Program-made: the position numbers and the translations under genes | Part shown: positions 4,736-6,642 of the stretch, piece after piece | Numbering within the stretch: the first letter of the stretch is position 1 | Layout of the letters: the number at the start of each line of letters is the position of its first letter | The notes under the pieces: model-generated | What the model saw: the letters and a program-made list of their open reading frames with translations, nothing else | What the model was told of the DNA's origin: nothing | The model's database searches: none | NCBI GenBank assembly: GCA_041666545.1 | Contig: JBAYGS010000004.1 | Location: 8,610 to 72,609, forward strand | Reading direction: 5' to 3' | DNA length: 64,000 nt | DNA from: Minisyncoccota bacterium | Lineage (GTDB): Bacteria; Patescibacteriota; Minisyncoccia; Phycocordibacterales; JBAYGS01

Positions 4736-4872
4736 GGCACTTTGCGCGGAAGTGGCAAAGCGAATGACCAATAACCAAGAGACAAATTCCAAACTAGAGA
4801 GTGTTTGGTTATTGTTTATTGGAATTTGGAATTTCACTTTGTTTGCTTATGAGCAAAGTGCTGGATCACCGG
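4736..4872 (+). repeat. Hairpin-ended expansion element (IVS) within the 16S V1-V2 region, copy 1
   Basis: Starts ggcactttgcgcggaagtggcaaagcg (self-complementary hairpin) and ends cactttgtttgcttatgagcaaagtgctgg (hairpin). Same termini as the element at 6497-6642. Confidence 0.55.
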
Positions 4873-5525
4873 CAGACGAGGTAGTAATAAATAGGTACGA
4901 ACCTTCGAGTCAAGAATAGTCCGTCGAAAGACGGGGTAATCCTTGATAGTCCCTTCGGGGTAAAGATTTATCGCTCGATGATCGGCCTATTCAGTATCAG
5001 CTAGTTGGTAGGGTAATGGCCTACCAAGGCAATGACGCTTAGGGGGGGTGAGAGCCTGTTCCCCACCGATGGAACTGAGATACGGTCCATACACCTACGG
5101 GTGGCCGCAGCCGAGAATATTCGACAATGGGCGAAAGCTTGATCGAGCGACGCCGCGTGATTGATGAAGTCCTTCGGGACGTAAAGATCTTTTATGAGGG
5201 AGGAAGTTTATTGACGTTACCTCATGAATAAGGGGTTGCTAAACTCGTGCCAGCAGCAGCGGTAATACGAGTGCCCCAAGCGTTATCCGGAATCACTGGG
5301 CGTAAAGGGTGTGTAGGCGGTAGTGTTAGTCTTGTGTCAAATTCTTCGGCTTAACCGGGGTACGCACGGGAAACGGCACTGCTAGAGGATGCGAGGGGTC
5401 TCTGGAACTCATGGTGTAGCGGTGAAATGCGTTGATATCATGGGGAACACCAAAAGCGAAGGCAAGAGACTGGAGCACTCCTGACGCTGAAACACGAAAG
5501 CGTGGGTAGCGAATGGGATTAGATA

Positions 5526-6138
5526 AACGCTCGCCTTAGCTTTTTAAAAACGCGCATAAAGTCCTGGTGGACTTTTGCTATACTCGGCCTCACGGCCTGC
5601 GCTGTTTTTAAAAAGCTAAGGCTCGCTCCTGTGAAAAGGAGAAGAGAAAGAGCAAATGTCTCATCTACTAGTGATAGTAGAAAGCAAATTTGGCTATATG
5701 CTGGAAACTCCGTTGTATCCGACAATACCGAAAGGTAAAAATTTGTCGGTGCGGACAATCAGCAGGAAACTTGTATGTGTTGAGAAGGGGATTCGGATTG
5801 TAATCTTTGGGAAGGCAACAGCGTAAGCCTCTGTATGTGGACAGAGAAACTGCGCACTACCCCAAGGCTCTTACCTTCTGGGACAGCGTGTTAAAGCGCA
5901 CTCCCTGTGTGACCAGTCAGTGTGATTGGTCACACCTCCTTCCCAGCACATATTAAGGATCCTCAGAGACTAAACGCCAGACCCCTGAATTTCAGGGTGA
6001 AGATATAGTCCGTTCTGCATAGCGATATGTAGAGACAAGCAGAAATGACTTGTCCTAGTAATTTTTAATTTTAAATTGTAATTTTTCATTTTGAGATTTA
6101 CATTTTAATTTTTAATCGTTACTTCGTAACAATTAAGA
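5526..6138 (+). mobile_element. ORF-less ~610 bp insertion (putative self-splicing intron/IVS) in the 16S between GGATTAGATA and CCCCAGTAGTCC (E. coli ~position 790)
   Basis: The conserved block ATTAGATACCCTGGTAGTCC is split by 613 bp. No protein-like ORF. Contains an AT-rich tract at 6061-6120. Confidence 0.5.
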
Positions 6139-6496
6139 CCCCAGTAGTCCACGCCCTAAACGATCTTCTCTGGTTTTTCGGAGTATCGACCCTCTGAGAG
6201 ACGAAGCTAACGCGTTAAGAGAAGCGCCTGGGTAGTACGGCCGCAAGGCTAAAACTCAAAGGAATAGACGGGGACTTGCACAAGCGGTGGATCATGTGGT
6301 TCAATTCGACGGTAAACGAAAAACCTTACCAGGGTTAGAAATCTAATCGAAGGCTAGCAGAAACGTTAGTCGTCTCACAAGGACGGTTAGACAGGTGTTG
6401 CATGGCCGTCGTCAGTTCGTGGTTTGAACTGTTCCCTTCAGTGGGGTAACGAACGCAACCCTCGTTGCCTGTTATATTTGTCAGGCGAGACTGCCC

Positions 6497-6642
6497 AGCA
6501 CTTTGCGCGGAAGCGCAAAGTGAGTTGAAAGTGAAAAGTTTATAAAGTCTGTAAAGTAAAGCAAAGAGCTCTGCTTTATGAACTTTCAACTTTATAACTT
6601 TATAAACTCACTTTGTTTGTTTGCGAACAAAGTGCTGGGAGG
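6497..6642 (+). repeat. Hairpin-ended expansion element (IVS) within the 16S (~E. coli 1130 region), copy 2
   Basis: Starts cagcactttgcgcggaagcgcaaagtg and ends cactttgtttgtttgcgaacaaagtgctggg. Inserted between gactgccc and ggaggaaggcgaggatgacg. Confidence 0.55.

Follow-up and report, generated by a model that had tools for sequence, protein, structure and literature searches.

Helix-tip insertions with shared end hairpins and unrelated cores in the 16S rRNA gene of an uncultured Paceibacteria bacterium

The 64-kb window considered here (the whole 64,000-nt stretch of contig JBAYGS010000004.1) contains a 16S rRNA gene interrupted four times: by a hairpin in helix 6 (h6), a group I intron, a hairpin in helix 40 (h40), and an insertion with a LAGLIDADG open reading frame (ORF) near 16S position 1400. 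The host is an uncultured member of the Paceibacteria, in the candidate phyla radiation (CPR); the SecF protein encoded upstream of the gene is 100% identical to a protein of a metagenome-assembled genome (MAG) that NCBI names 'Candidatus Paceibacterota bacterium'. Bacterial small-subunit (SSU) rRNA was recognized by Rfam model RF00177 at window positions 4663–6890, with 1133.8 bits. The true 3′ end of the gene lies at ~8285, because the motif AAGTCGTAACAAGGCA was found at 8234. Our subject is the pair of hairpin insertions, which have their ends in common.

Against the Rfam SSU model, 115 nt in the h6 terminal loop and 135 nt in the h40 terminal loop (the hairpin at model positions 1148–1170) were unaligned. 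Both insertions replace the terminal loop of their helix, and neither contains an ORF. Measured against the ancestral loops, they span 4736–4862 and 6499–6634, which trims the 4736–4872 and 6497–6642 assigned by an earlier, sequence-only reading of the window. No ribozyme was found in either interval, in that no Rfam intron model matched at the gathering threshold or at E ≤ 5; the models that did appear at E ≤ 5 were sub-threshold ones for microRNA precursors or small-RNA hairpins. The parts of the gene are as follows (comparison loci carry the prefix L, inverted repeats the prefix I).

4663–~8285, + strand: 16S rRNA gene (RF00177; 3′ motif at 8234; four insertions)
4728–4735, + strand: 5′ strand of the native h6 stem, GGGGGTCC, pairing with 4863–4870 (GGATCACC) (Rfam alignment; stem with GCAA loop in L007, L012 and L033)
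4736–4862, + strand: h6 insertion, 127 nt, in place of a GCAA tetraloop (empty site in L033; fold)
4738–4762, + strand: 5′ end module of the h6 insert, CACTTTGCGCGGAAGTGGCAAAGCG, an imperfect hairpin with GGAA loop (16/16 identical to 6498–6513)
4763–4834, + strand: core of the h6 insert, an AT-rich rod of AAATTCCAAAC / TTTGGTTATTG type (I13, I19, I20)
4835–4860, + strand: 3′ end module of the h6 insert, CACTTTGTTTGCTTATGAGCAAAGTG, a hairpin held partly by G-U pairs
4863–4870, + strand: 3′ strand of the native h6 stem, GGATCACC (Rfam alignment, fold)
6494–6498, + strand: 5′ strand of the native h40 stem, CCCAG, pairing with CTGGG at 6635–6639 (Rfam alignment)
6499–6634, + strand: h40 insertion, 136 nt, replacing the usual short loop (Rfam alignment; fold)
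6499–6522, + strand: 5′ end module of the h40 insert, CACTTTGCGC-GGAA-GCGCAAAGTG, a perfect 10-bp hairpin with a GNRA-type loop (I17)
6523–6608, + strand: core of the h40 insert, an AT-rich rod of TAAAGT-like units (~80% identity to the L003 h6 core)
6609–6634, + strand: 3′ end module of the h40 insert, CACTTTGTT-TGTTTGCG-AACAAAGTG (conserved in L001, L003 and L005, with perfect 10–14 bp stems)
6635–6639, + strand: 3′ strand of the native h40 stem, CTGGG (Rfam alignment)

Comparison of the two inserts showed ~25 nt of 5′-terminal and ~31 nt of 3′-terminal sequence in common, the end pair reading GCACTTTGCGCGGAAG...CAAAGTGC. At the 5′ end, CC[G/A]GCACTTTGCGCGGAAG, 18 of 19 positions are identical. 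The 3′ 40 nt are 80% identical, with 27 of 31 positions matching over TCACTTTG...CAAAGTGCTGG and a consensus of TCACTTTGTTTG[C/T]TT..GA[G/A]CAAAGTGCTGG. These matches scored 32.2 and 30.2 bits, above the best of 100 shuffles (28.2 bits), which bears out the earlier observation that the termini are shared. The exact 16-mer GCACTTTGCGCGGAAG occurs in the window at 4737 and 6498 only. A perfect 5′ hairpin had been described in each copy; this is true of the h40 copy (10 bp, GGAA loop), while the h6 copy departs from it by an additional G and a C in place of a T. The cores between these ends (~70–85 nt) are unrelated and do not align. Only the ends are common, and the proposal of two independent insertions of one ~140-bp miniature inverted-repeat transposable element (MITE) is not supported.

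To place these ends in a wider context, we scanned the GTDB, JGI and IMG/VR collections for them, with exact-match patterns only. The 5′ hairpin pattern was found at two loci in 185,579 GTDB species representatives and at three in JGI metagenomes. All five (L001, L002, L003, L004 and L005) are the h40 tip of Parcubacteria 16S genes, in lineages whose 16S exons are 87.6–88.5% identical to those of the window. The 16-mer GCACTTTGCGCGGAAG at the 5′ end of h40 is invariant, and the 3′ module nearly so, in L001, L002/L005, L003 and L004 (at least four other lineages), and the cores between these conserved ends are wholly different and unalignable from lineage to lineage. In the adjoining native stem, the pairing CCCAG/CTGGG is replaced in relatives by CCCCG/CGGGG, a compensatory change from A-U to C-G. 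Further relatives were gathered through homologues of the LAGLIDADG protein; h40 was extended by 41–172 nt in 12 of the 12 relatives examined, with other end sequences outside the subclade. Apart from h40 and the one h6 of the window, no insert ends were found in the window, the GTDB representatives, JGI or IMG/VR by exact match; the seven IMG/VR matches to the 16-mer end were all due to chance, with no hairpin continuation. Because the ends are conserved at ~88% 16S identity, the h40 insert is a lineage feature and not a recent transposon insertion. These patterns argue that the h40 basal module is vertically inherited and ancestral to a Paceibacteria subclade, its base apparently under purifying selection at the RNA level and its tip hypervariable.

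The h6 insert has a different history. L033 comes from a relative whose SecF is 94% identical to that of the window at the amino acid level and 81% at the nucleotide level (131 of 302 third codon positions differ); its rRNA leader is ~99% and the overlapping part of its 16S gene ~97–98% identical, and the two species are probably congeneric. In L033 the h6 site is empty and reads CTAGGGGCC-GCAA-GGCACCGGCAG, versus CTAGGGGGTCC[GGCAC...127 nt...GTGCT]GGATCACCGGCAG in the window, so the GCAA loop was replaced, not split. Only some of the 12 relatives have an extended h6. The empty state is ancestral, because the distant loci L007 and L012, which lack the insert, also show the GCAA loop. Two other independent assemblies of the window's species, L031 and L032, carry an identical h6 insert, which is thus not an assembly artefact. 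L031, an ENA contig, is chimeric from about 8790 to 9137, where the 16S gene of an unrelated organism follows after about position 900, and is therefore uninformative for h40. For helix 17 (h17) the distribution is reversed: L033 has an insert at this site and the window has none. Since h6 and h17 differ in opposite directions, whole inserts are gained and lost between these probably congeneric species. An earlier suggestion was that conserved, lineage-specific helices at both sites would make a mobile element unnecessary; such a helix was found at h40 and not at h6.

Other observations were made on these close relatives. The h17 insert of L033 (about 2125–2197) consists of a GC hairpin, GCATCACA-TTGA-GTGTGATGC, followed by AT-rich sequence in which the contig ends. 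A 56-nt segment of the 16S leader, GGGGCTAAACAACCC...AAATAATCTA, is present in L033 (1454–1509) and L035 and absent from the window between 4448 and 4449. The contigs of L034 and L035, with SecF 86% and 89% identical, respectively, stop at or before the 16S start.

The junctions of the h6 insert point to the source of its ends. The CCAG/CUGG stem of h40 is universal in bacteria (Rfam consensus). In the window, h40 reads CC[AGCAC...GTGCT]GG, and h6 reads CC[GGCAC...GTGCT]GG within its ancestral TCC-GCAA-GGA stem. Two pairs native to h40, those at the inner end of its stem, are thus present in the h6 copy, whose boundaries are the CC/GG that both helices have in common. Because the h6 copy holds these h40 pairs, we conclude that the ends were copied from h40 to h6. 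Such copying fits template switching or ectopic conversion at microhomology, as judged from the junctions, and not an external element entering both sites. In its 3′ hairpin, the inner stem of the h6 copy differs from the L003/L005 version (TTCG/CGAA) by three transitions, all of which keep pairing via G-U; this lends support to the idea that the h6 copy may be under RNA-level constraint. L005 likewise uses a single end type twice within its 16S gene, in h6 and in the h10/11 region.

We then turned to the cores. Over ~85 nt, the h40 core of the window shares ~80% identity with the core found in h6 of L003 (z 18.7), which lies in another helix, in a genome with 88% 16S identity to the window, and in an insert with different ends. 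A single core is present at four places within 6.5 kb of L006 (Candidatus Taylorbacteria MHSL01000032; z 12–30): three are in the 16S gene, at h6, at h40 and in the h10/11 region, and the fourth is in the tuf-rpsJ spacer. The h6 core of the window is related to this family but shorter, with z of 6.3 to the L006 h40 core and 4.2 to the L006 h6 core. In L001, a 16-nt motif, CTAACAACCAACAAGA, occurs in the h6 insert, where it is part of the stem, and again in the h40 core. The repeat of L006 and the composition of the inserts are listed below.

L006 945–1060, 1785–1905, 2025–2145 and 4945–5075: ~100-nt AT-rich palindromic repeat, in the tuf-rpsJ spacer and three 16S helices
Window h6 insert: ends of h40 type, core A
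Window h40 insert: ends of h40 type, core B
L003 h6 insert: ends of h6 type, core B
L006 h6 insert: ends of h6 type, core A
L006 h40 insert: ends of a third type, core A

Since pairs of ends and cores are mixed in this list, the two combine freely. Moreover, the AT-rich cores are seen again in further helices and further genomes and, once, in an intergenic spacer; some mobile or exchangeable component is at work.

Within the window, an echo of the h6 core in the spacer motif of an intergenic repeat family, as first noticed from the sequence, is real but short. The TTTGGTTATTGTTTATTGG tract of the h6 core matches 15258–15276 (18/19 positions; 30.2 bits, more than any shuffle), and also matches an intergenic tract at 22399.

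15258–15290, + strand: intergenic GGTTATTG tract related to the h6 core, a weak and short link

Tracts like this one lie at 22398–22430 and 24043–24075, adjoining 35-bp repeats. The repeat family itself, with arms of ~35 bp (GTTGAGAACCCTTACGAATAGGGCAYRCGAATAAG), is found at 22342–22490 and in part at 14502–14541, 15310–15352 and 16071–16113. At 22347–22483, a GGTTATTG-rich centre is enclosed by two arms in inverted orientation (91% complementarity over 33 nt), an arrangement resembling a small MITE. The arms at 14502 and 15310 flank an ORF (14604–15191) without a Pfam match.

By folding predictions, both inserts are far more stable than shuffled controls. The minimum-energy fold is a rod of –62 kcal/mol for h6 (z = –7.6) and of –67 kcal/mol for h40 (z = –9.3), with the insert ends pairing into an extended stem (I2, I5 and I10). 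Two folds are possible for each insert: the single rod, in which the 5′ end pairs with the 3′ end, or a three-hairpin junction on the parent helix. By nearest-neighbour energies, the rod is favoured over the three-hairpin form for h40 (–67.0 versus –59.6 kcal/mol) and for h6 (–64.9 versus –50.7 kcal/mol). In relatives, on the other hand, each end hairpin is perfectly Watson-Crick, and the rod form would hold A-C mismatches. In h6 of L005 and L006, the 5′ hairpin is CYGTGC/GCACRG and the 3′ one CCGCGC/GCGCGG, and for L001 and L006 h40 the three-hairpin form is itself the minimum-energy fold. A GGAA loop closed by C-G is present in 6 of 6 h40-type modules. Predicted energies in the window thus favour the rod and covariation in relatives favours local hairpins, and the choice could not be settled. 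The archaeal bulge-helix-bulge splicing motif was also considered and rejected, as the predicted rods show symmetric 2×2 and 1×1 internal loops and not two 3-nt bulges 4 bp apart.

We favour the view, with a probability of roughly 55%, that the inserts are modular helix-tip insertions of rRNA, resembling intervening sequences (IVSs), and not transposase-driven MITEs. Each insert would be transcribed within pre-16S rRNA, taking the place of a terminal loop at the ribosome surface, and would be built of two parts: a GC-rich basal module of two short hairpins that could also pair together, and a long AT-rich palindromic core. The h6 insertion was acquired later, in the window's species, and its basal module would derive from an h40-type module through non-reciprocal DNA copying, by either template switching or ectopic gene conversion, the junctions lying at CC/GG microhomology. 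The absence of a transposase from the 40 window ORFs scanned, and of dispersed ends, would likewise point to a route without transposase. The cores would be exchangeable cassettes drawn from families of AT-rich palindromic repeats, with fast turnover, moving between helices and into intergenic DNA. A rod of ~60 bp would make an ideal substrate for a double-strand-specific RNase of the RNase III type. At least the AT-rich distal rod may be removed as in classical IVSs, with the conserved base staying behind as an extension of h40 or h6, where its GC-rich sequence would perhaps protect the new RNA ends.

A locus of this kind is seen in L001, where the h6 site holds a 443-nt insert (5122–5564, minus strand) with a 117-aa ORF of family PF05635, 23S_rRNA_IVP (E 9e-26), and flanking inverted repeats of ~30 nt. 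Judged by these features, it is an IVS of the classical type inside a 16S gene. Together with the suggestion of Tsurumaki et al. (2024) that short non-intron insertions of CPR rRNA may be RNase III IVSs, and with secondary accounts of CPR 16S insertions that resembled spliced introns, it lends indirect support to removal of the rod.

Several points weigh against this modular, IVS-like interpretation. The argument for direction and microhomology is based on 2–4 nt per side. Nor are the h6 ends clearly closest to the window's own h40 ends: their CTTA loop and two-nt spacing resemble L005. Because they carry features of other lineages, the donor may be an older or foreign h40 module. Copying from h40 to h6 should also bring the core, and as the cores are unrelated, either core replacement or an unseen donor is needed. 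A single intergenic copy of a core was found (in L006), and in the 64-kb window there is no full further copy of either core or end, only short GGTTATTG tracts. Finally, RNase III has little sequence specificity, so the near-invariant h40 ends may reflect a different role, for instance in binding a protein or in a tertiary contact made through the GGAA loop.

Full retention as expansion segments, with the hairpins staying in mature 16S rRNA as extensions of the h6 spur and h40 head and never excised, is a serious rival, albeit one that we judge unlikely. It accounts well for the extension of h40 in all 12 relatives, which includes plain hairpins of 41 nt that are unlikely to be processed, and for ends conserved like core 16S sequence. 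The C-G-closed GGAA loops and the evidence for local hairpins in relatives speak for it as well. In this reading, the basal module would be a structural unit (e.g. a four-way junction whose GNRA loop docks on the ribosome or binds a lineage-specific protein) that was duplicated from h40 to h6. Yet AT-rich, unconserved cores of 70–130 nt that are gained and lost between probably congeneric species are difficult to view as working ribosome parts. Moreover, the h6 site of L001 holds an ORF-bearing IVS, and both copies in the window favour the rod by 7–14 kcal/mol. Published accounts of insertions in CPR 16S genes also point away from retention: one review (PMC9698310, citing Brown et al. 2015) states that metatranscriptomics supported their self-splicing, and another study (PMC9297842) that most of them were predicted to be introns, from comparison of gene and transcript.

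A non-autonomous transposon has less in its favour. In such a scenario, a MITE with terminal inverted repeats AGCACTTTG/CAAAGTGCT and subterminal hairpins, mobilized by an outside transposase, inserted independently in h6 and h40. Shared ends and inverted termini are what it predicts, as are the presence/absence polymorphism at the orthologous h6 site and the occurrence of cores at several sites, one of them intergenic. However, neither insert shows a target-site duplication; the flanks are the two strands of an rRNA stem, inverted and not direct, and at h6 the GCAA loop was replaced. The ends are confined to h40 and this one h6 in the collections scanned, and some pairs of the h40 stem itself are present in the h6 copy. 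At h40 the ends have been kept at one site over ~12% 16S divergence while the cores were replaced, the opposite of what is expected of a decaying, immobile MITE. No transposase was found among the 40 ORFs scanned in the window. We consequently regard this scenario as improbable. From the mobile family postulated at the outset, the paralogous ends, the lineage-specific gain at h6 and the recurring cores are retained; the notion of one MITE is not, given the old h40 ends, the lack of target-site duplications and the lack of dispersed ends.

Two related candidates were considered. The motif CACTTTG forms a direct repeat, and to read it as a target-site duplication is impossible for h6, where the ancestral site is without the motif; at the origin of the h40 module such a duplication is possible, and in L003 the repeat is 10 nt long (CCGCACTTTG). 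Two subterminal hairpins on the same strand with an identical stem are reminiscent of IS200/IS605-type ends. This candidate was rejected, as the 40 ORFs scanned include no Y1 transposase, dispersed copies are lacking and the inserts are not flanked by a conserved target.

That the similarity arose by chance, low-complexity convergence or misassembly is highly improbable: although the cores are low-complexity, AT-rich and repetitive, and rRNA regions of MAGs are chimera-prone (as in L031), the two matches are collinear, lie exactly at both ends and each exceed all shuffles, the exact 16-mer is limited to these two sites of the window, three independent assemblies agree exactly on the h6 insert, and the h40 module was found in five other contigs.

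How do these inserts compare with known systems? IVSs of bacterial rRNA are typically described from 23S helices 25 and 45, in Salmonella, Yersinia, Leptospira and Coxiella (for Coxiella, PMC4990558; in general, PMC11270868). As in classical IVSs, a loop at a helix tip is replaced, the ends pair in a long stem and there is no ribozyme; the distribution is sporadic among close relatives (for h6 only), and the h6 site of L001 carries the hallmark PF05635 ORF. In 16S rRNA, IVSs occur in Helicobacter and Campylobacter species and in Clostridium paradoxum. Unlike classical IVSs, the h40 module is not sporadic and its ends are conserved throughout the subclade, and RNase III-type excision of the rod, as opposed to retention, is here something we infer by analogy. 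No RNase III gene was found among the 40 ORFs scanned in the 64-kb window. Two end hairpins with an exchangeable core, and ends common to two helices of one gene, were features we did not find described for classical IVSs.

In CPR bacteria (Patescibacteria), 48% of the genes for 16S rRNA and 82% of those for 23S rRNA carry insertions (PMC11270868). The short, ORF-less, non-intron insertions among them are reported as uncharacterized and possibly IVSs processed by RNase III (Tsurumaki et al. 2024, PMC11270868). The two inserts studied here belong with this short class: the host is a CPR bacterium, each adds at least 100 nt relative to the reference, no intron model matches and there is no ORF. 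Beyond what is reported for that class, they show modular anatomy, conserved ends, paralogy between helices, gain and loss, and core copies outside rRNA.

Palindromic, MITE-like repeats within genes or transcripts include the Rickettsia palindromic elements and the Correia/NEMIS elements of Neisseria, which are cut by RNase III. Like these, the inserts form long hairpins, are tolerated at surface positions in functional genes and have dispersed copies (the L006 core). Unlike them, they have no target-site duplications, no defined terminal inverted repeats of the core and no known transposase, and the conserved ends are bound to their site. The expansion segments of eukaryotic and Asgard archaeal rRNA provide another parallel: h40 is a lineage-wide, length-variable extension of a surface helix (12 of 12 relatives), but the host is bacterial and the distal turnover between close relatives is extreme. 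Taken together, these likenesses suggest that the inserts would work most like classical rRNA IVSs, with cores that appear to behave like the palindromic, MITE-like repeats that genes tolerate. We found no earlier account of an insert built in two parts, of h40 ends so strongly conserved, of ends copied between helices, or of cores and ends that recombine freely.

The other two insertions of the gene belong to well-described CPR classes.

About 5526–6138, + strand: group I intron in 16S rRNA (RF00028 at 5597–6032)
About 6864–8153, + strand: insertion of ~1.3 kb near 16S position 1400 (LAGLIDADG_1 ORF at 7488–8066, Pfam E 4e-20)

The 3′ part of the group I intron contains an AT-rich tandem repeat (6058–6116; periods of 13, 20 and 27 nt) directly before the 3′ splice site, and L001 has a comparable AT-rich tract at the matching place in its intron. 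The insertion near position 1400 also has a weak match to the Rfam group-II D1-D4 models (7458–7571) and corresponds to '16IS9', a class of group-II-like inserts with LAGLIDADG ORFs reported from CPR bacteria. Its LAGLIDADG protein has 94% identical homologues in many metagenomes. At its 3′ end (8266–8290), the 16S gene reads ...GCTGCTCGTGGATTATTTCAAATTG, the usual anti-Shine–Dalgarno CCTCC being absent there; that of L001 similarly reads ...GTGGAACATTTCAAGG.

Downstream of the 16S gene, tRNA-Ile(GAT) is encoded at 9795–9869. A 44-nt duplicate of its 3′ half, 98% identical, follows 67 nt on (9937–9980), and a fragment like the 5′ end of tRNA-Ile lies upstream (about 9679–9692). This arrangement could be an integration scar or a rearrangement of tRNA genes; the region downstream of the L001 16S gene is similarly complex. 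Elsewhere in the window, two 39-nt tracts (17269–17307 and 28813–28851) are 92% identical and are made up of the heptamers TCACTAC / ACTACTC in tandem. AAGTTTC forms a third such array (4.7 copies) at 28618–28650, and all three are near the 3′ ends of long ORFs. Among the 40 ORFs scanned, products include SecDF, pyruvate kinase, Mur ligases and many glycosyltransferases.

These data give the short, ORF-less insertions of CPR rRNA an anatomy, namely conserved end hairpins plus a replaceable AT-rich rod. The motifs can be used for mapping RNA ends and for finding or masking inserts in surveys of CPR 16S genes. The long-suspected idea that rRNA IVSs originate as palindromic selfish DNA becomes directly testable. 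A broader proposition, possible but decidedly tentative, is that the short, uncharacterized CPR rRNA insertions consist of a conserved, helix-bound socket of two hairpins and an exchangeable AT-rich palindromic cassette that also resides in intergenic DNA. Cassette and socket alike would move between helix tips and genomes by a transposase-independent route, with palindromes or template switching as its driver, and once the cassette has been cut out the conserved socket would serve as a signal for processing or end protection. If true, this would be a kind of selfish palindromic element not described before, for which the helix tips of rRNA are safe havens.

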